Shown piece by piece: positions 16,301-47,453 of a stretch of 64,000 nt of DNA. The stretch is from the IMG/VR virus record IMGVR_UViG_3300008108_000013; one strand, 5' to 3'. The stretch's first letter is position 1. The number at the start of each line of letters is the position of its first letter. The translations under genes and the position numbers were made by a program. Under the pieces are notes generated by a model. It searched no databases, was not told the DNA's origin, and saw nothing but the letters and a program-made list of their open reading frames with translations. The DNA is from a virus (lineage: Duplodnaviria; Heunggongvirae; Uroviricota; Caudoviricetes).

Positions 16301-19300
16301 GACGGCTTATCTTCTGCAACAGGCCACGGACTATTGCTGTATCCTACTGGCTTAAGATACACTTCATTAGGGGTCTGTCTTACTATAAAGTCAACCAATG
16401 ATGTGTCAATTTGATTAACTAGCTCGTATCCTTGGGGATTATTTTTTACATCAGATTCGTCAATTATAAATTCGATGTTTTCAAATGCCTGGCTTGCACC
16501 GTACTGCCCGGTACGTAATGCCCATTCTTCATAAAAATCAACGCTTTCTTTATCATCGGCACTCAGAACATCAAATAGTTTATTAAGAACATTTTGTGTT
16601 CCCTTTTCAACTATCATTCCTTGATAAAACTTAAATTCGCTAACGTCGTCTTTAATAATGTTACTTAGATATTGACGCTTTTGATATCCAACTAAATGTT
16701 GTGCTACTGCCTGCTGATCTCCGTCAAAATTGTCGCTATCTAAACTATAAAAATCTGTAAACTGCTCGGCTTTATATGTCCAGTTAGGTAATAATCGCGG
16801 AGTAGGTTTTTGATCTAACTTAATCCACTTGTTATTATCAAACGACTCCTCTCCAGGAATAAATCGAGAAGCAGAATAATAAAATTGCTTATATTTTACA
16901 ATGTCGCCTAGCGCATAATCTTTCCATGACTCCCAATCATCGATCTTCGCTTGATCGAAGATAAATCCTGGAATGTTGAACGATCCGTTCCATTCGCTAC
17001 TAACATACCCGGATACTTTAATTTTTTCTTGTCTATATCCGCTTTCAGGATTATAAATTGTATCGTTGAACAAAGTTGAATTATTAAGAATAACAACTTG
17101 TTCTTTTTGCACGAGATAAAAAGTTGCACCATATATACCGTCTTCAGTTGGTGTATAACTTACTGCATTATCTTCTCTATAATTATTTAAAAAATTAGGT
17201 TGTATCGGTGTTCCGTCAACTTTAAATATTTCGTAACCATTAAAAGAATTACGAATGTCGTCGACTACACTTAACGGTGCTTCGAAAGTTAATTTAATTG
17301 CGGCTGGACTTAGGCTTATTACAGCACTTCCAATGTCACTTAGTCCGTCAAGTTTAACAAAATTATCTTCTTGAAAAACTTCTGAAGGATCCGATGTAAC
17401 TACTGATTTATAATAATCGCCGGCGTACTTTACAACACTACCTACAGGTACAAATTCATTTGGCTTCCAGTCGTCCCATTGGTCTTCGCCGGTGCTCCAG
17501 TTTTGTGTAGTCCAGAATAAAAATTCTTTAGCACTAGTTTCCCAATTAGTTATAGCATTTAATTCTGCATTAAAGTCATCAAAAATAAATCCTTGGTCTT
17601 TCAAATATTCGCCGTATCCTAAAAGGAAATCAACAACTTCTTGAATTGTTCTAAATCTAGTTCCGTATGGAACTACGATTTCCTCGGTCCTATCCCATTC
17701 TGTTCGTATATAAGCATCTCGACCACCAATTAGAGGAAGAGACGGTAGTAATTGATAATATTTAGAATCAAATGTATCTGATGTTGTATGTAAAACTTTT
17801 GATCTGTAATATCTATTATTGTAAAATATTACTTTACCAGAAGAATATGTTGACTGAGAAGTCCATTCAACAAATCCCTCAGATATGCCGCCGATGTTTA
17901 TTAGTAAACCAAGATTAGTAGCTGGATAATATTTAAAGTATGGTTGAGTTTTACTGTAACCTTTTACTGAAAAACCGTCAGCACCCTTCGTAATAACTAC
18001 TCCGCTATATGATATCTTCTTGATAGGACTAGACGAATTTAGAATAATCTCATAATCTTCTTGAGGGACAAATACACTACTTTGACTTAAAGGTGTTTTA
18101 CTATCTAATAGTAACTTAAATTTTTCTTTACTGCTAAAAGATCCTATTCTGTACGATAGTTTAGCTTGAATATTTTTTAAATTATATTGATACTCAGTAT
18201 AAGATCTTAAATTGTCACTAAGGATATAATCTACAATGTAATTAATAATTCCAGAAGATTTAATATTAGAAGTGCTAGAATAGATGCTAGGCAATACAAT
18301 GTCGCTGGCTGTAATTCTAACTCCAGTATCTTTATAAATCAACTGCCCTGCTAAATTTCTAACAATTCTTGACCTATCTAAAAGAGTTCCTAAGGTAGTT
18401 GCTGGCTGCAACAACATTGATGCAACCATTACACTGAACGGATAATAACTACTTCTTCGCCAAGCAGTCTCAACAGGACTTTGGTCTCCGAATACAAAAT
18501 CGTTAGCTGTGCTAGTTGTGATCGGTCCTAGAGCTAAACCAGAATCTAATGGACTAATAATATTTCCATCTTGATCTACCGGTATTCTTCCTTTTAGATA
18601 TGGCCTCTTGTATTTTTCTACATACACCGTTGGTGAATTAGGTTGCTTTACTAGCCCATCGGCTATGTCTTCCCACATTATTAAATTGTCGCTAGTATAT
18701 GGAGCAGGACCATATACTTCTTGCCACCAACTTGGCTCTATAGAAAAACCTAACATTTCCCAAGGACAAAGGTTCGGCCTATCTGTTCCTAGCATCCACT
18801 GATAGACACCTCTCCAGTATCCCGGAAGAGGCGAAGAACCGTCTAATGCCGGTAATTCTTTATAGTTAAAAGTAAGACTATTATCTCTAGAATAACCAAG
18901 CGGTTTAGTAAAATCTTTACTAACAAGTCCCGACCACTGGTAAAAACTTATTGAGAGGACTTCATTAAATTCAGACAGCGAATATCTATTACTCTTATTA
19001 AAAGACGGAATTAAATCTTGTACATCAAATATGTTAGAATCGTACTTAATTTTAATATTATTAAAAATTCTCTTTTCTAATTCTAATATTAAATCGTCTC
19101 TGTAATCATTGTAGGCCAATATTAAGCTACCGTCGTGGCCCTGTATCATCCACCGTGGATTTACCAACGTGGTATCATAAATCTTTTTAGGTTCATATTT
19201 TGGCCAAATACCTAACTTAGTTGGTGTTGGTGGAACACAGCATCCATTAGTATTTTCAAATTCCCATATTGTAACTTTATCATCGTTTTGCAATTCTGCA

Positions 19301-31132: not shown

Positions 31133-31972
31133 ATGACATTACAACCGAAAGTTAACTACCTAAACAACAAGGATATGTTGTCGGAAATACACAAATCAAA
31201 AAGTTCTTACTGTAGTTTTACCGACCCAAAGTACCATCAATACGATATTATTTTACCCAATATTGAAAAAATTAACATTAGAACTATAGCAGAAGCCAAG
31301 CGTAATAGGGCTAAAAGGCAAGGCGACGAAGAATATGCTAAACGCAAAGCCGCTGGTGAAAAGATCAAACTAGCAGATTGCGAAGTTGATTATAAAAAGA
31401 TTGCCAAAACAGATTTAATTTTTAGGATCATGACGTTTGATCATATTCCTACAAACGTTGGCAGAAAAAAGAATCCTAAAAGTACAGCAGACAAACACGA
31501 TAAAGTCAATTTTCCACCATTCCAACACTGGAAATTTGACGATAATGACCAGTTAGTATGTGTTGGCAAGAGCCACTGGAAAGGCGATTTAATCAAAGGA
31601 CACTTTGATAAGGATGCCGGACAAATAACAAACAATCTTGCACGGATGATGATCAAATTGTGTGAACGATATGCTACTAGGGGCAACGTTCGTGGCTATA
31701 CTTATAACGATGAAATGAAGGGACAAGCTATTTTACAGTTAACACAAATAGGTCTACAGTTTGATGAGAGTAAGTCCGATAATCCGTTTGCTTATTTTAC
31801 TGCCGCTGTCACAAATTCATTTGTCAGGGTTATTAATATTGAAAAACGGAATCAGAATATTAGAGATGATATTTTAGAAATGAACGGTATGAATCCAAGT
31901 TATTCTAGAACAGGACAAGGCGAACACGAAGCCGCAATGAAACGCCATAGCGAAGGATCAAGCGATGAGTAA
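31133..31972 (+). CDS. gp55: Late-transcription sigma factor, T4 gp55-like (279 aa)
   Basis: NYLNNKDML N-terminus and N.RGYTYNDEM...FD..KS.NPFAYFT....NSF.R.I..EK are gp55-family motifs. The gp55-gp47-gp46 order matches T4-like phages. Confidence 0.85.
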   Translation: MTLQPKVNYLNNKDMLSEIHKSKSSYCSFTDPKYHQYDIILPNIEKINIRTIAEAKRNRAKRQGDEEYAKRKAAGEKIKLADCEVDYKKIAKTDLIFRIMTFDHIPTNVGRKKNPKSTADKHDKVNFPPFQHWKFDDNDQLVCVGKSHWKGDLIKGHFDKDAGQITNNLARMMIKLCERYATRGNVRGYTYNDEMKGQAILQLTQIGLQFDESKSDNPFAYFTAAVTNSFVRVINIEKRNQNIRDDILEMNGMNPSYSRTGQGEHEAAMKRHSEGSSDE

Positions 31973-32978
31973 TCTTTTTAAAAAAGCCGCGTGTTTTACA
32001 GATATACACTTCGGTTTAAAATCTAACAGCGGAGTACATAATCAAGATTGTGAAGATTTTGTTGATTGGTACATCGCGAAAGCAAAGGAGGAAGGATGTG
32101 ATACAGGAATATTTCTTGGAGATTGGCATCATAATCGTAACAGTCTTAATATCACTACTATGGATTATAGCCTCAGAGCGTTGGAAAAGCTGGGTAGTGC
32201 CTTTGATCAGTTTTTCTTTTTTCCTGGTAACCATGATCTTTATTATAAAGATAAACGCGACATACATTCTGTTGAATTTGGAAAGTACATTCCCGGTATT
32301 ACCGTTGTACACCACCCGATGACTGAAGGTGACGTTACCCTTTGCCCGTGGCTAGTCGGGGAAGAGTGGAAGCAGATCGGTAAAAAGAAAGCCAAATACA
32401 TTTTTGGTCACTTTGAACTGCCGCACTTTTACATGAACGCTATGGTTGCTATGCCAGACCACGGTGAGATTCAGTTAGACGCATTCCAAGGTTACGATCT
32501 AGGGTTTAGTGGACACTTTCACAAACGCCAAAGTAAAGGTAATATGCACTATATCGGCAATGCTTTTCCGCACAATTATGCTGACGCATGGGACGATGAA
32601 CGAGGTATGATGATATTAGAGTGGGGTGGGCAACCAGAATACTATAGTTGGCCTGGACAACCGACATTCCGTACTGTAACTCTAAGCAGACTAATCGATG
32701 AAGCAGACAGTTTAATACTACCAAAGCAACATTTACGTGTAACATTAGATATCGATATCAGCTATGAAGAAGCAAGTTTTATCAAAGAAAAGTTTATGGG
32801 CGATTACGATATACGTGAATTGACTTTGATTGCAGAAAAGAAAGCTGTTGAAATTGATACTAATATAGATATCCAATCTTTTGAATCAGTCGACCAGATT
32901 GTGTCCAGTCAACTTGTAAACATTGAAAGCGACACGTATAATAAAAACACGCTACTAGCGATCTACAATAACCTATGA
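31965..32978 (+). CDS. gp47: Recombination nuclease, Mre11/SbcD family (T4 gp47-like)
   Basis: Metallophosphoesterase motifs DIHFG, GDWHH, GNHD, GHFE and SGHFH. Confidence 0.95.
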   Translation: MSNLFKKAACFTDIHFGLKSNSGVHNQDCEDFVDWYIAKAKEEGCDTGIFLGDWHHNRNSLNITTMDYSLRALEKLGSAFDQFFFFPGNHDLYYKDKRDIHSVEFGKYIPGITVVHHPMTEGDVTLCPWLVGEEWKQIGKKKAKYIFGHFELPHFYMNAMVAMPDHGEIQLDAFQGYDLGFSGHFHKRQSKGNMHYIGNAFPHNYADAWDDERGMMILEWGGQPEYYSWPGQPTFRTVTLSRLIDEADSLILPKQHLRVTLDIDISYEEASFIKEKFMGDYDIRELTLIAEKKAVEIDTNIDIQSFESVDQIVSSQLVNIESDTYNKNTLLAIYNNL

Positions 32979-34753
32979 TTAGAATAAAAGAATTAACAGT
33001 AAAAAACTTTATGAGTGTGGGTAATCAAACCCAAGCAGTTGATTTTGATAAAGAAAACTTAACTCTTGTCTTAGGCGAAAACTTAGACATGGGCGGAGAT
33101 GACAGCGGATCACGCAACGGTACTGGTAAAACTACCATAGTCAATGCCCTAAGTTATGCGTTATTTGGGAACGCCCTTACTAATATTAAGAAAGACAATT
33201 TAATTAACAAGATTAACAATAAGAACATGTTAGTTACGTTGGCGTTTGAAAAGGACGGGCAATCGTATCGTATCGAGCGTGGGCGTAAACCCAATATTCT
33301 ACAGTTTTATGTTAACGATATAGAGCAAGAAACTGAAGAAACGGATGATGCCCAAGGAGATATGCGGGAAACGCAGAAAGATCTAGACGATCTGCTGGGT
33401 ATGAGTCACGATATGTTCAAACATATAGTAGCTTTAAACACGTACACCGAACCGTTCTTATCAATGAAGGCCAATGAACAACGTGCTATTATTGAACAGT
33501 TATTAGGTATAACGATTCTTTCAGAGAAAGCAGAAACACTAAAAGAACTTATTCGATCTACTAAAGACGAAATTACACAAGAGTCAGCTAGAATTGAAGC
33601 AACTAAAAAATCCAATGAAGGCATTCAAAAAAGCATCGACAGTCTGATTACTAAACAAACAGCGTGGAACACTCAGCGAGACAACGATGTTGAAAAAATT
33701 GGTCGTGCTATAATTGAATTAGAAAATGTAGATATTGAAGCTGAGCTTGCGAAGCACAGCGACCTAAAACTTTTCGAAGAAAAGTCAGCGAAGCTGAAAA
33801 GCCTAAACAAGGAACGTGCTACGTTAGAAAGCGCGACAGCGCAAGCAGAGCGAAGCGTAAAAAAATACGCAACGGAGTTGCAGTCGCTGGCAAACAAAAA
33901 ATGCCATGCTTGTGAACAAGACTTACATGATCACAAGCATGAAGAAATGACTGCTACTGCTACTCAAAACTTATCAGAGGCTCAAAAGTATCAGGACAAG
34001 GTCCAAAGCGACTTGAATAAAATACTGACAGAAATAACCAGCATTGGAGAGTTAAGTAATAAACCGACTACTTACTATGATACCCTAGAGCAGGCACTCA
34101 AACATCAGAACAATCTCAAAACATTAGAAACACAACTGACCGTTAGAGCAGGAGAGCAGGATCCCTATCAAGAACAGATCGAAGAACTGATGAATACTGC
34201 CATGCAAGAGATTACCTGGGATCAAGTCAACGAATTGACCAGTCTTAAAGACCACCAAGAGTTTTTACTTAAACTACTGACCAGCAAGGATTCGTTTATA
34301 CGTAAAAAGATTATCGATCAAAATCTAGCATACTTGAACAATCGCTTGACCTACTATCTAGACAAGATGGGTCTACCACATACTGTAGTATTCCAAAACG
34401 ATCTTAATGTAGAGATCACACAGCTAGGACAGGATCTAGACTTTGATAATCTTAGTAGAGGCGAGCGTAATAGACTAATACTTGGTTTATCTTGGGCTTT
34501 CCGTGATGTGTGGGAAAGTTTGTATCAGAATATTAACTTATTGTTTGTTGACGAACTTGTAGACAACGGACTTGACGCATCAGGTGTTGAAAATGCTCTA
34601 GCAGTATTGAAAAAGATGTCACGAGAACGTAGCAAGAATATATTCTTGATCAGTCACAAGGACGAACTAGTAGGTCGTGTTAACAACGTGCTCAAGGTAA
34701 TCAAAGAAAACGGGTTTACCAGCTACGCAACTGATCTGGAGATCAGTGAGTGA
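32975..34753 (+). CDS. gp46: Recombination ATPase, Rad50/SbcC family (T4 gp46-like)
   Basis: Walker A NGTGKTT, coiled coils with a central zinc hook CHAC, signature LSRGE, Walker B LLFVDE, ISH switch. Confidence 0.95.
   Translation: MIRIKELTVKNFMSVGNQTQAVDFDKENLTLVLGENLDMGGDDSGSRNGTGKTTIVNALSYALFGNALTNIKKDNLINKINNKNMLVTLAFEKDGQSYRIERGRKPNILQFYVNDIEQETEETDDAQGDMRETQKDLDDLLGMSHDMFKHIVALNTYTEPFLSMKANEQRAIIEQLLGITILSEKAETLKELIRSTKDEITQESARIEATKKSNEGIQKSIDSLITKQTAWNTQRDNDVEKIGRAIIELENVDIEAELAKHSDLKLFEEKSAKLKSLNKERATLESATAQAERSVKKYATELQSLANKKCHACEQDLHDHKHEEMTATATQNLSEAQKYQDKVQSDLNKILTEITSIGELSNKPTTYYDTLEQALKHQNNLKTLETQLTVRAGEQDPYQEQIEELMNTAMQEITWDQVNELTSLKDHQEFLLKLLTSKDSFIRKKIIDQNLAYLNNRLTYYLDKMGLPHTVVFQNDLNVEITQLGQDLDFDNLSRGERNRLILGLSWAFRDVWESLYQNINLLFVDELVDNGLDASGVENALAVLKKMSRERSKNIFLISHKDELVGRVNNVLKVIKENGFTSYATDLEISE
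33738..33889 (+). other. Cluster of C(GNA)G triloop hairpins embedded in the gp46 CDS
   Basis: TGC-GAA-GCA 33748-56, ACTTTTC-GAA-GAAAAGT 33769-85, TCAGC-GAA-GCTGA 33785-97, AACGT-GCT-ACGTT 33813-25, GCGAAGC 33850-56 and GCAAC-GGA-GTTGC 33869-81. Most are enclosed by CAGCGAC (33757-63)/GTCGCTG (33883-89). Confidence 0.7.
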
Positions 34754-34989
34754 TGCGGCCGCAGGACGAAGAACTACATGCAGAGTTACTGCGTGTGTTC
34801 CGAGAATACTTCGAAGCTAACCAACAGTGGCTCAACGAAGGTACTAAAGTGTCTGCAATTCGTCTACGTAAAAAATTATCGGAAATCCGTCGCGTTTGTT
34901 CTAAGCGCAGAGTTGCGATCCGCGAGTGGGCCGTTGATAAAGAACAGCAGTTAGAAGCAAGAAAAGAGCGTAGAAAAAATAATGTCTGA
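34750..34989 (+). CDS. Small basic protein resembling the histone H1-like Hc1 N-terminal domain (79 aa)
   Basis: EGTKVSAIRLRKKLSEIRRVCSKRR resembles the Hc1-type GNKAAgxRaRKxxxElxKxxKxxR helix pair; very K/R-rich. Confidence 0.5.
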   Translation: MMRPQDEELHAELLRVFREYFEANQQWLNEGTKVSAIRLRKKLSEIRRVCSKRRVAIREWAVDKEQQLEARKERRKNNV

Positions 34990-35758
34990 AAAATTAACCA
35001 TAGATTGCTTATACATCAACGGGGATTCGTGGGTCTACGGCAGTGAACTAGTAGATCCTAGCAGACCCGATCTGCAGGATCATTTTCATCCTATCCACGA
35101 AAATTATAGAAAAAAATATAAATGGCCCACGCTGATAGCTGAACAGATTGGTGCAGAATTGATCAACAATTCGGAGCCTGGATCGGGAAATGATCGTATT
35201 TTAAGAACCAGCATATACGATCTAGCACAGTTAAAAATGCAGGGTCGTAGAGTTATGGCGATAGTTGCATGGTCCCAACTTCATCGGTTTGAAGTGTCTA
35301 ACCAAGGCGGCCCCTCATTTAGAGGATTTGTTAATCCTAATGATCCAGAACTGCCCAGAGGTGTTAGAGAATTTTGGGGAACATGGAGTTCTGATTACTG
35401 CGATCTAGTCAAGTGGATCACACAGATGATCAGTTTCCACAGTTTCTGTCGAGCTAACGATATTCCTGTGCTAGGTCTTAGCGTGTTTAAAAAACCTTAT
35501 AATTTACTAGAAAGACATATCAGCAGTAAAGAATTTAAACCGTATCTCACACAGCTCAATGAAATCTGCGATCTACCTGCACAGCACTATCAATTTAGTT
35601 TAGAATCAATACTCAAACAATACACAGGCATAGACTACGGACCTGGAGGGCATCCATTGAAAAAAGGCCATATGATTTTAGCAAGAAATATAGAAAACAA
35701 ACTTAAACAACGATTCACGATTAACCAACCCGAGGCACCCAATCAGCTACATAGTTGA
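34982..35758 (+). CDS. SGNH/GDSL-like hydrolase (258 aa)
   Basis: Block I NGDSWVYG, block II PGSGNDRI, C-terminal GGHP..GH catalytic-His motif. Confidence 0.7.
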   Translation: MSEKLTIDCLYINGDSWVYGSELVDPSRPDLQDHFHPIHENYRKKYKWPTLIAEQIGAELINNSEPGSGNDRILRTSIYDLAQLKMQGRRVMAIVAWSQLHRFEVSNQGGPSFRGFVNPNDPELPRGVREFWGTWSSDYCDLVKWITQMISFHSFCRANDIPVLGLSVFKKPYNLLERHISSKEFKPYLTQLNEICDLPAQHYQFSLESILKQYTGIDYGPGGHPLKKGHMILARNIENKLKQRFTINQPEAPNQLHS

Positions 35759-36201
35759 TGACATGGTATTACAATAATGAACAAGTCGAAACACTCCCTG
35801 AAGATTGCGTAGGCTTTGTTTATATCATCACCAACCTCATCAGCGGCAGGCGATACATAGGCAAAAAACTAGCCAAATTTAGTAAAACCACATATAAAAC
35901 TGTAAAACTCAAGAACGGCAACAAAAAGAAAAAGAAAATTCGCAGTAAAATTGACAGTGACTGGCGTGACTATTATGGATCAAGCCCGGAACTAAGCAAA
36001 GATATTGCGGAATTAGGCACAGAAAACTTTCGTAGAGACATACTTTTTTACTGTTCTAGCAAAGCAGAATGCAGTTATATAGAGGCCCGCGAACAATTTA
36101 CCCATCGAGTACTAGAATCAAAAGACTGGTATAACGGCCATATTCAAGTAAGAGTACACGGCTCGCATATACTCAAGGCTCAAGAAAAACAGGCAAAATA
36201 A
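35755..36201 (+). CDS. GIY-YIG-superfamily nuclease (148 aa; likely start ATG 35758)
   Basis: GFVYIITN...RYIGKK motif pair, YYGSS, conserved E (YIEAREQF) and a terminal YN; a Lys-rich loop KLKNGNKKKKKIRSK lies within. Confidence 0.75.
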   Translation: MMTWYYNNEQVETLPEDCVGFVYIITNLISGRRYIGKKLAKFSKTTYKTVKLKNGNKKKKKIRSKIDSDWRDYYGSSPELSKDIAELGTENFRRDILFYCSSKAECSYIEAREQFTHRVLESKDWYNGHIQVRVHGSHILKAQEKQAK

Positions 36202-36566
36202 AGCGGTTTTTGGGCTCAGTGCCGGCCAATATCGGGCACCCTTATACCTGGATCTCGGATCGCAGGGACGGAAATCTCTCGCCGCAAAGAGTACTCAGCA
36301 ACTACCCGTAATGGATGAAGATCGCTTAAAACCTGCGATTTTGCTGTTTGAAAAGAATATGTATAGGTAAAAAGAGCAGGGAAAACCTGCACGTACACAA
36401 GTATGTTAGCGTATATTTGTGTGCCGCCGTCATTATGAAGACGGGGCTCGAGGTACCGGATGACCGCCTCTGTAATGCCCTAACGCTATGTGGCATTGTT
36501 CAACTCGGATAATGTTTTTTTTCGCCCGGAAACGGGCGAAGTGTGGCTGAACAATCTGGATAATGC
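36202..36566 (+). ncRNA. Putative large structured non-coding RNA (family unassigned)
   Basis: The gap has no credible ORF, is GC-rich and is covered by helices: ATCGCAGG/CCTGCGAT, GCAGG-GAAAA-CCTGC, a 12-13 bp stem 36393-36424, CCGTC/GACGG, GGGC/GCCC with GAGG/CCTC, ATTGTTCA/TGAACAAT and TTCGCCCG-GAAA-CGGGCGAA. There are two possible pseudoknots. G-U pairs and the GAAA loop favour the + strand. Confidence 0.7.
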
Positions 36567-46631: not shown

Positions 46632-46720
46632 CTAAATAATAATGTCTAATATGAGCTTGCCTTGTAGCAAGACTTATGCAGAATCCCTCTGCGTAGACCT
46701 AGAACGTCATATTTAAGGAG
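46632..46720 (+). promoter_or_regulatory. Late promoter (CTAAATA) plus structured 5' leader
   Basis: Three-way junction: GTCTA/TAGAC, ATGAGCTTGC/GCAAG-A-CTTAT and GCAGA/TCTGC, followed by AAGGAG. Confidence 0.6.
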
Positions 46721-46727
46721 AAAACAA

Positions 46728-47453
46728 ATGGGACGTCCATTAAACAAAAAATATTTTGCCAATACAAACTATCAAGATTTTGGCACAGCAAATGTTGGTG
46801 GCGAAAGCGTTGCCAGCGTAACCGCACCAGCAGGTACACTAGCTGATTTAGAAACAGGAACATTTACAATTCCTGCGGCAAGTATTACTGCCCCAGACAT
46901 CACCGGCGGCGCAAAGCCAGTTTTACAAGTAGTTGTAACCGGTGCAACAACATATACAGTAAGTGTTGTATCAGCAGGTTCAGGATATACAAGTGCTCCA
47001 ACAATTACATTTAACGGCAGTATTACAGGCGGATCTGCTTCAGGTAGTTCTACACCAGTAGCAACACTAACATCTAGTACATCTGCTCGTCAGAACGGTA
47101 TTAAGTGTGAAACACAATACGGTTCAGGCGACAGCGAAATTACTACCGGCGACATTATTAAACAAGAAAGTTCTAAGCGTTATAAAGTTCAAACATCTCA
47201 AGGTACTGGTTTCTTTACACTAGTAACAACTGAATCTAAATCAGCCGGCGAAATGTCAATTATGGCAACTGACAGCGCAGGCGGCACATACCTTGTTAAG
47301 AAATTAACTGCTCGTAAAGCAGTTCTAGTTCCAACAGCAAATGCACACGGCGGATCAAGTTCAGCAGGAACACAGTTTGCCAGCGGCACAACTGCTAAAT
47401 GGACATTTGGTTCAGCTGTTTTAGATACAACTGTAACTATTGCTAACCAGTAA
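46728..47453 (+). CDS. Virion structural protein, possible head decoration (241 aa)
   Basis: Thr/Ser/Gly-rich with an AGSGYTSAPTITF motif; directly after the major capsid gene, with a strong SD. Confidence 0.55.
   Translation: MGRPLNKKYFANTNYQDFGTANVGGESVASVTAPAGTLADLETGTFTIPAASITAPDITGGAKPVLQVVVTGATTYTVSVVSAGSGYTSAPTITFNGSITGGSASGSSTPVATLTSSTSARQNGIKCETQYGSGDSEITTGDIIKQESSKRYKVQTSQGTGFFTLVTTESKSAGEMSIMATDSAGGTYLVKKLTARKAVLVPTANAHGGSSSAGTQFASGTTAKWTFGSAVLDTTVTIANQ

Follow-up and report, generated by a model that had tools for sequence, protein, structure and literature searches.

The window analysed here is the whole stretch of 64,000 nucleotides from a Caudoviricetes phage (IMG/VR virus record IMGVR_UViG_3300008108_000013), and it contains a Rad50/SbcC-like (gp46-like) gene, called rad50 below, that is preceded by a Mre11/SbcD-like gene and, further upstream, by a gene for a gp55-like late sigma factor. 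The order gp55-gp47-gp46 (55-47-46) at this locus is that of T4. The closest named phages, Phosso, PA5oct and Atu_ph07, share ~46-50% protein identity with the encoded Rad50 (~49% for the closest), a search for near-identical phages with the window returned no match, and the relatives come mostly from freshwater metagenomes. A sequence-only reading of the window had described one multibranch array of C(GNA)G DNA mini-hairpins within rad50, bracketed by an inverted repeat, and had proposed that it is a dual-coded signal acting in single-stranded DNA (ssDNA). This cluster (33738-33889) corresponds to codons 255-305, i.e. to the hook-proximal part of the coiled coil just 5' of the C-H-A-C codons of the zinc hook, and a direct check of the sequence found every motif named for it in place. 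Comparison with related phages makes it very probable that a selected nucleotide-level element exists over rad50 codons. This element appears to be single-copy and clade-specific, to span ~45-60 nt (33813-33870, with a core at 33833-33856) and to be kept by purifying selection on synonymous sites.

The comparison comprised 80 homologous loci from IMG/VR with 67-88% protein identity and a codon alignment of 79 sequences. Within this set, ~26 relatives with at least 79% protein identity form a close clade, which differs from the window at about half of the synonymous codons and in which silent sites are near saturation. Constraint was measured in the manner of synplot, by comparing sequences that are neighbours around the tree. 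Over codons 287-295 (33833-33859), the ratio of observed to expected synonymous change is 0.30 (z -10.8), and over codons 282-296 it is 0.44 (z -11.1), while the most extreme z in 20,000 column permutations was -8.1. The trough, at 33818-33862, is the strongest among six neighbouring genes, the next-best z being -6.3. Distance matrices of adjacent 70-codon segments of rad50 correlate with each other at only r 0.02-0.47 in the close-clade alignment, which indicates that the gene is heavily mosaic, or recombined, within the clade. Because these matrices correlate poorly, sites are probably largely uncoupled in their history, and hitch-hiking is therefore an unlikely cause of the trough.

Related rad50 genes thus show the synonymous constraint that the sequence-only reading had predicted, in the form of one sharp trough. 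Its view that synonymous sites are shaped for a second purpose can be kept for the 3' third of the cluster (33813-33870), whereas it fails for the first two GCGAAGC copies. At these, in codons 259 and 272, GCG encodes 9 of 19 and 11 of 23 alanines, and the pairwise synonymous difference of 0.70 equals the neutral level. An overlapping gene does not account for the constraint in any of the antisense, +1 or -1 frames. The antisense open reading frame (ORF) at 33673-33897 (74 aa; 85 aa from stop to stop, 33673-33930) has wobble positions that coincide with those of rad50 and adds no constraint, stops flank the block in the +1 frame, and the -1 frame is open, but the constraint does not follow it. 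A recombination linker or breakpoint hot spot was likewise rejected, as the correlation of distance matrices across the block (r 0.43) is one of the highest that rad50 shows.

The consensus of the close clade over the constrained codons is AGC GCG AYA GCG CAA GCG GAG CGA AGC, which parses as four overlapping units of the motif GCG(N)NAGC, namely GCGAYAGC, GCGCAAGC, GCGGAGC and GCGAAGC (Table 1). In the window itself, the DNA mini-hairpin consensus (GCGNAGC or GCGNNAGC) is matched at 33749, 33788, 33850, 33833 and 33839. Of the nine constrained wobble positions, eight fall on bases that define the motif, and the natural variants (ACA/ATA/TTA and CGT) alter loop N positions only and retain the motif. 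Several of the conserved codons are rare in the window as a whole: GCG, present three times, accounts for 7% of its alanine codons, ACG for 5% of its threonine codons, and GAG and CGA stand at 19% and 14%, respectively.

The 27-mer at 33830-33856 has exact matches in at least 119 IMG/VR contigs, one in each, and lies in frame in rad50 in 91 of 91 distinct sequences. It occurs once in a 96%-complete relative of 356 kb, in which the rad50 element is the sole chain of three or more units and also the sole cluster of three GCGNAGC copies. No other copies of the block were found in the window or its relatives. The 24-nt core was matched once in 596 Gb of prokaryote genomes, by a phage contig mis-binned into a metagenome-assembled genome (MAG). 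The contig CAZCDW010000003.1 (56.7 kb, labelled uncultured Bifidobacterium MAG) carries the rad50 of this phage, with 88.5% protein identity and 41% GC, and is most likely such a mis-binned phage contig. In the far clade, there is no synonymous trough at the corresponding position, and the site has no GCGNAGC motifs, a GC content of 30-40% and ordinary folding. The partial genomes of this clade that were searched contain only sporadic two-unit matches, at control rates.

Table 1. Genes, motifs and hairpins at the rad50 locus, with the share of close-clade cells in which each stem is paired
Feature	Position	Strand	Cells paired	Basis or remark
gp55-like late sigma factor gene, upstream of the Mre11/SbcD-like gene	31133-31972			PHROG search (PHROG 77/100/12791 cited for the three-gene set)
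Mre11/SbcD-like gene, upstream of rad50	31965-32978			PHROG search (as above)
Rad50/SbcC-like (gp46-like) gene, 592 aa	32975-34753	+		ORF list; Pfam AAA_23/SMC_N; PHROG 77
Zinc-hook codons TGC CAT GCT TGT (C-H-A-C), codons 310-313	33902-33913	+		Translation, alignment
Conserved element: small stem, mini-hairpin chain, second small stem; codons 280-299 (ERATLESATAQAERSVKKYA)	33813-33870	+
Core chain of overlapping GCG(N)NAGC units	33833-33856	+
Chain unit 1, GCGACAGC	33833-33840	+
Chain unit 2, GCGCAAGC	33839-33846	+
Chain unit 3, GCAGAGC	33845-33851	+		Degenerate in the window (codon 291 = GCA); clade consensus GCGGAGC
Chain unit 4, GCGAAGC	33850-33856	+	94%
Hairpin AACGT-GCT-ACGTT, 5' flank of chain	33813-33825	+	76%	AGCG-N5-CGCT in relatives instead
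Hairpin GCGC-GACA-GCGC, overlapping chain unit 1	33831-33842	+	94%	Hairpin scan; almost invariant; absent from the sequence-only list
Hairpin GCGTA-A6-TACGC, 3' flank of chain	33855-33870	+	85%	Loop is the A7 run; outer pairs kept in only 55% of 91 sequences
GCGAAGC heptamers	33749, 33788, 33850	+
Two upstream GCGAAGC copies	33749-33755, 33788-33794	+		Clade consensus state, without constraint
C-GNA-G pentamers (five)	CGAAG 33750, 33775, 33789, 33851; CGGAG 33873	+
Hairpin ACTTTTC-GAA-GAAAAGT, 7-bp stem	33769-33785	+	60%	Lineage-specific
Hairpin TCAGC-GAA-GCTGA, 5-bp stem	33785-33797	+	61%	Lineage-specific
Hairpin GCAAC-GGA-GTTGC, 5-bp stem	33869-33881	+	25%	Lineage-specific
Bracketing inverted repeat CAGCGAC with GTCGCTG	33757-33763 with 33883-33889	+	52%	Lineage-specific
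Perfect 11-bp inverted repeat CATGCTTGTGA / TCACAAGCATG over hook codons (HACE, DHKHE)	33905-33915 with 33931-33941	+		Missed by the sequence-only reading

The conservation of the individual hairpins follows the same division. Paired cells were counted in the clade with wobble pairs included, and a second set, of 91 sequences, led to the same conclusion. Stems within 33813-33870 are paired in 76-94% of cells, while the range is 25-61% for the other stems of the region. The single, bracketed multibranch array had to be given up, as the bracket, the 5' hairpins and the GGA hairpin all fall into the lower range and show no constraint. At the pair 33814-33824, the 91 sequences contain AT 46, GC 21, GT 21 and AC 3, which is the pattern that would be expected for pairing on the + strand, although the two sites are only 10 nt apart and are probably linked. 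A relative that is 99% identical to the window (G001) differs from it at two positions in 260 nt, and both changes weaken a stem, an A-to-G in the TCAGC stem and a G-to-A in the 11-bp inverted repeat over the hook codons. This repeat is perfect only in the window lineage and usually carries one or two C-A mismatches in relatives; the conserved peptides HACE and DHKHE account for most of its complementarity. The other small hairpins are unconserved; they arise on the GC-rich codon background or from peptide-imposed complementarity, and they drift. On the - strand, two terminator-like hairpins (a stem followed by a T-run) are present at 33882-33868 and 33797-33785. They are complementary to the GGA hairpin with the A7 run and to TCAGC-GAA-GCTGA, and neither stem is conserved in relatives.

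The density of hairpins in the window lineage is nevertheless high, with 4 of 19 + strand C-GNA-G hairpins (stem of at least 3 bp) in one 152-nt span, the maximum in the window. The five hairpins with a stem of at least 5 bp place the region in the top 0.4% of windows compared. The heptamer GCGAAGC is expected ~2 times per strand in 64 kb, while three copies are present within 102 bp. Three heptamer copies within 110 bp are not rare in themselves: such triplets are formed by twelve heptamers (~ten distinct places) in the window, and Markov simulations give 2.6.

The atypical codon usage that had been claimed for the region was borne out, as an excess of GCG (4 of 8 alanine codons) and ACG (2 of 3 threonine codons) over the window-wide usage given above, and the CpG density is 9.2 per 100 nt in the region compared with 3.6 in the window. 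The predicted DNA folding energy of the region is -28.4 kcal/mol, compared with -14.2 +/- 3.1 when synonymous codons are permuted gene-wide and -19.0 +/- 3.0 when they are permuted within the region. In the close clade, folding is stronger than in codon shuffles in 25 of 25 sequences (mean z -3.45 gene-wide and -2.2 within the region), while control regions give a z of 0 to -1.1 and the far clade -0.5. Codon-shuffled controls, which had been proposed as a check on the array, have fewer hairpins and weaker folding than the natural sequence. Folding across the whole window was scanned as GC-corrected energy, and a scan by codon-shuffle z covered its first 27.5 kb. In the scan of all 64 kb, the original cluster has a GC-corrected z of -3.5, and the lowest DNA folding energy is found at 33821-33972 (-31.3 kcal/mol, GC-corrected z -4.9), where the main contributor is the 11-bp hook-codon inverted repeat at 33905-33941. 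The strongest codon-shuffle z in the first 27.5 kb, -5.4 from only 24 shuffles, belongs to 16864-17016 in a gene on the - strand.

Among the functions that such an element could have, action as folded ssDNA of the coding strand is tentatively favoured, because a structural motif specific to DNA can be read four times in the conserved bases, because motifs of this kind act at the G4 origin, at RSF1010 ssiA and at N4 promoters, and because RNA stems of 2-3 bp would be weak. The consensus GCG(N)NAGC was defined for DNA and occurs at the G4 complementary-strand origin, at RSF1010 ssiA and at the N4 virion-RNA-polymerase promoters (PMC13037366). In the proposed mechanism, the coding-sense (non-template) strand would become single-stranded during replication, recombination or transcription, and compact, G-A-closed mini-hairpins would then fold and resist coating by single-strand binding protein (SSB). 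The folded chain would give a DNA-handling factor, e.g. a primase or helicase loader, one fixed landmark in the genome. Alternatively, the chain could stabilise a transcription-derived R-loop able to prime replication, as at T4 ori(uvsY) and ori(34). The fuller proposal, that the non-template-strand chain is a functional ssDNA signal (an SSB-excluding loading or priming site, or an R-loop stabiliser) in an abundant freshwater clade of giant T4-like phages, is more doubtful than action as ssDNA as such.

Comparison with known systems shows likeness in the motif and differences in its setting. With the d(GCGNAGC)/d(GCGNNAGC) mini-hairpin DNA of Hirao and colleagues (PMC13037366), the element shares a consensus that it matches four times running, with two further GCGAAGC copies upstream, all on one strand. 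Natural examples of mini-hairpin DNA are single motifs in larger origin or promoter hairpins, whereas an overlapping chain of predicted mini-hairpins lies here in the coding sequence of a large double-stranded DNA (dsDNA) phage. The ssi/G4-type signals are strand-specific clusters of small hairpins with GCGAAAGC, GCGTTAGC or CCGAAGG, which bind SSB poorly and mark a priming site (PMC13037366). The element resembles the primase-dependent signals of this type (the complementary-strand origins of G4, St-1 and alpha3, and ssiA/ssiB of RSF1010) as a strand-specific cluster of small hairpins. These signals are located in non-coding DNA of single-stranded or strand-displacement replicons, whereas the element is coding and belongs to a T4-like dsDNA genome of ~350 kb; their conserved fold extends over at least ~100 nt, while only ~45-60 nt are conserved here and the larger fold is not. 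No cognate primase was identified for the element, and a search of the 356-kb relative for a DnaG zinc-ribbon domain found none.

The N4 virion-RNA-polymerase promoters are hairpins whose stem has 5-7 bp and whose triloop is GGA or GAA, with GCGGAGC among them (PMC13037366). This shape is met by three hairpins of the window, at 33769-85 (7 bp, GAA), 33785-97 (5 bp, GAA) and 33869-81 (5 bp, GGA), but unlike the N4 promoters, which are conserved among relatives and located upstream of early genes, these are intragenic and unconserved (60%, 61% and 25% paired). GCGGAGC is also part of the clade consensus, but with a stem of 2 bp only. With the coding-embedded cis-elements detected by FRESCo or synplot-type analyses, the element shares a short, sharp synonymous trough in a fast-evolving gene, a single copy and restriction to one clade. 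Dual-coded phage signals include lambda ori, which lies in gene O, T4 ori(34) and the T4 pac site, in gene 16. The element lies in rad50 and not in the initiator or terminase gene, which usually carries its own cis site. The T4 R-loop origins ori(uvsY) and ori(34) combine a promoter directly upstream with an easily unwound element; the rad50 element is GC-rich and not readily melted.

Several observations weigh against action as ssDNA. Mini-hairpin DNA of this class is marked by unusually high thermal stability and nuclease resistance in single-stranded form; nearest-neighbour folding of the 58-nt element is modest, with a z of -1.6 as DNA and of -0.4 to -2.0 as RNA; to our knowledge, standard nearest-neighbour parameter sets include no model of sheared G-A closure. 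The element is present on the sense strand of the mRNA, so an RNA function fits its position equally well, and the frequent G-T and rare A-C pairs identify the + strand without separating DNA from RNA. The loop-centre A of CGA is conserved as well (22 of 23 CGN codons), which the plain motif would not need and which points to recognition of the sequence as well as the shape. The far clade has neither the element nor a substitute chain in the partial genomes searched. A domain search of the 356-kb relative found no DnaG-type zinc-ribbon primase domain, nor was the T7-like RNA polymerase domain PF00940 found in it, although control genomes were unmatched too. GC skew has no global extremum near the site, and a check of the skew, suggested with the original proposal of an origin, lent it no support, as there is only a local inflection at a switch in gene orientation ~3 kb upstream.

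A site in messenger RNA (mRNA) ranks close behind the ssDNA reading, followed by a duplex-DNA site, a rare-codon pause and no function. As an mRNA element, taken by itself a rather unlikely explanation, the conserved bases would be a site for a sequence-specific protein, a small RNA (sRNA) or a nuclease on the rad50 transcript, possibly held in a loop that ACGYU/AGCGU closes, and would adjust how the mre11-rad50 message is translated, stabilised or processed. Location on the sense strand of a transcribed gene agrees with this. The RNAalifold consensus consists of 8 pairs, ACGYU/AGCGU closing the chain plus CGC/GCG, and the only consensus pairs close the chain, with C-G in 13 cases, U-G in 11 and one double compensatory change. 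G-U pairs are frequent and A-C rare in the 91 sequences, the loop-centre A of CGA is kept beyond what the DNA motif needs, and GCGCAAGC holds a GCAA tetraloop of the GNRA type. The consensus RNA fold is, however, weak (-7 kcal/mol, covariation term -0.11), stability would not be expected of RNA stems as short as 2-3 bp, the region matches no Rfam family, a complementary partner (at least 15 of 18 bases) is found nowhere in the 356-kb relative, and duplex predictions within the window amount to gappy noise. Binding of a phage or host regulator, a packaging or origin protein or a site-specific nuclease to duplex DNA, the hairpin look being incidental, is less probable again and on the whole unlikely. 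It would be in keeping with the single copy per genome, with a primary sequence that is kept exactly over ~27 bp, loop-centre base included, with the GCGC-N4-GCGC dyad, whose arms are kept around a variable spacer, and with the coding-sequence origins and pac sites of lambda and T4 mentioned above. It is opposed by the lack of repeated or iteron-like copies elsewhere, of a global GC-skew feature at the site and of a sigma-70-like promoter in 33400-34300, in a scan that did not include phage-specific middle promoters. Physical genome ends at the motif were also rejected: 7 of 42 whole contigs end within 250 nt of it, compared with ~3 expected, a marginal enrichment with variable offsets of 29-206 nt (hand tally), and these ends are read as assembly breaks at a shared conserved k-mer.

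The codons themselves provide another, improbable explanation, in which a cluster of rare codons would cause a ribosome pause ~15-25 codons before the zinc hook and aid folding of the coiled coil or hook. GCG, ACG, GAG and CGA are indeed rare in the window and are located just upstream of the hook, but it is codon identity that is kept, the rare synonyms GCC, ACC and CGG not being substituted. Moreover, the common codon CAA is invariant (27/27), AGC is not rare, and in the far clade the protein is built in the same way although the cluster is missing. A chance pattern without function on a GC-rich background, with a trough due to shared ancestry or a recent gene-conversion patch, is more improbable still. 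Most of the individual hairpins listed originally are unconserved, heptamer triplets are common in the window, both G001 substitutions weaken stems, and the region was chosen after sight of the sequence, all of which speaks for such a pattern. The trough, however, lies well beyond anything in the permutation null and exceeds every other trough in the six genes, synonymous sites on either side are close to saturation in a mosaic gene, the identical 27-mer comes from many samples, and with window-wide usage the conserved rare codons would have a joint probability of ~1e-8. The remotest explanation is a dnaX-type programmed -1 frameshift, in which an upstream GGAG, a slippery A_AAA_AAG and a downstream stem would yield a truncated, N-terminal Rad50. 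A_AAA_AAR follows 3' of the block in 17 of 27 clade members (in the window, the A7 run at 33860-33866 on the + strand is an in-frame A_AAA_AAA), GGAG precedes the slippery site by 8 nt in most of them, and the -1 frame is open for 56 codons (33745-33915). Against this, the other 10 of 27 members have ACG, ACA, ACC or GCA at codon 296 and no slippery site, and most of them keep the chain; the window has no GGAG because its codon 291 is GCA; the constraint stops before the would-be transframe region; and there is no conserved downstream stem. As judged from these sequences, a frameshift is in effect ruled out as the reason for the conserved sequence.

For 40 years, work on mini-hairpin DNA has dealt mainly with its chemistry, and roles in nature are attested by a few cases at origins and promoters. 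Here, a chain of four units is fixed at synonymous sites across more than 100 environmental phage genomes in which other silent sites are near saturation. The chain is a clean test case for recoding, as 24 bases can be changed with the protein kept. Should it act as a DNA signal, it would be a fixed cis site (an origin, a loading site or an R-loop) in a phage group without any known site of this kind; should it act in RNA, it would be a new regulatory site in the mre11-rad50 message. If the ssDNA reading is correct, evolutionary constraint would for the first time have shown that a natural mini-hairpin array matters in a dsDNA virus, and this array would be dual-coded with an essential repair protein. 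Most of the visually striking hairpins around the element, on the other hand, are evolutionary noise, which calls for caution in reading hairpin clusters from sequence alone.

A number of further features were observed in the window. The second-strongest synonymous trough among the six genes lies in the Mre11/SbcD-like gene (codons 267-275, 32763-32789, + strand; z -6.3, observed/expected 0.47), in an AT-rich sequence in which no motif was recognised. Downstream of rad50, the Rfam Polynucleobacter-1 RNA (RF01718) was found with 114 bits at 36214-36349 (+), directly 3' of a GIY-YIG-like gene (35755-36201). It is present downstream of rad50 in 18 of 18 relatives tested, from both clades, and this phage group therefore appears to carry Polynucleobacter-1, an orphan 'sRNA' motif. 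A link between this RNA and the rad50 element was rejected, as the RNA occurs in both clades and does not track the element, and no convincing complementarity was found. The Rfam freshwater-2 RNA (RF02980) was detected at 46655-46730 (+) with 64 bits, above the gathering score. GATC is locally enriched, with 24 sites in the 2-kb bin 34001-36000 and 16 in the next, compared with 3-14 in the other bins; window-wide, its ratio of 1.08 is at expectation, while GCGC (0.62) and CGCG (0.55) are under-represented.

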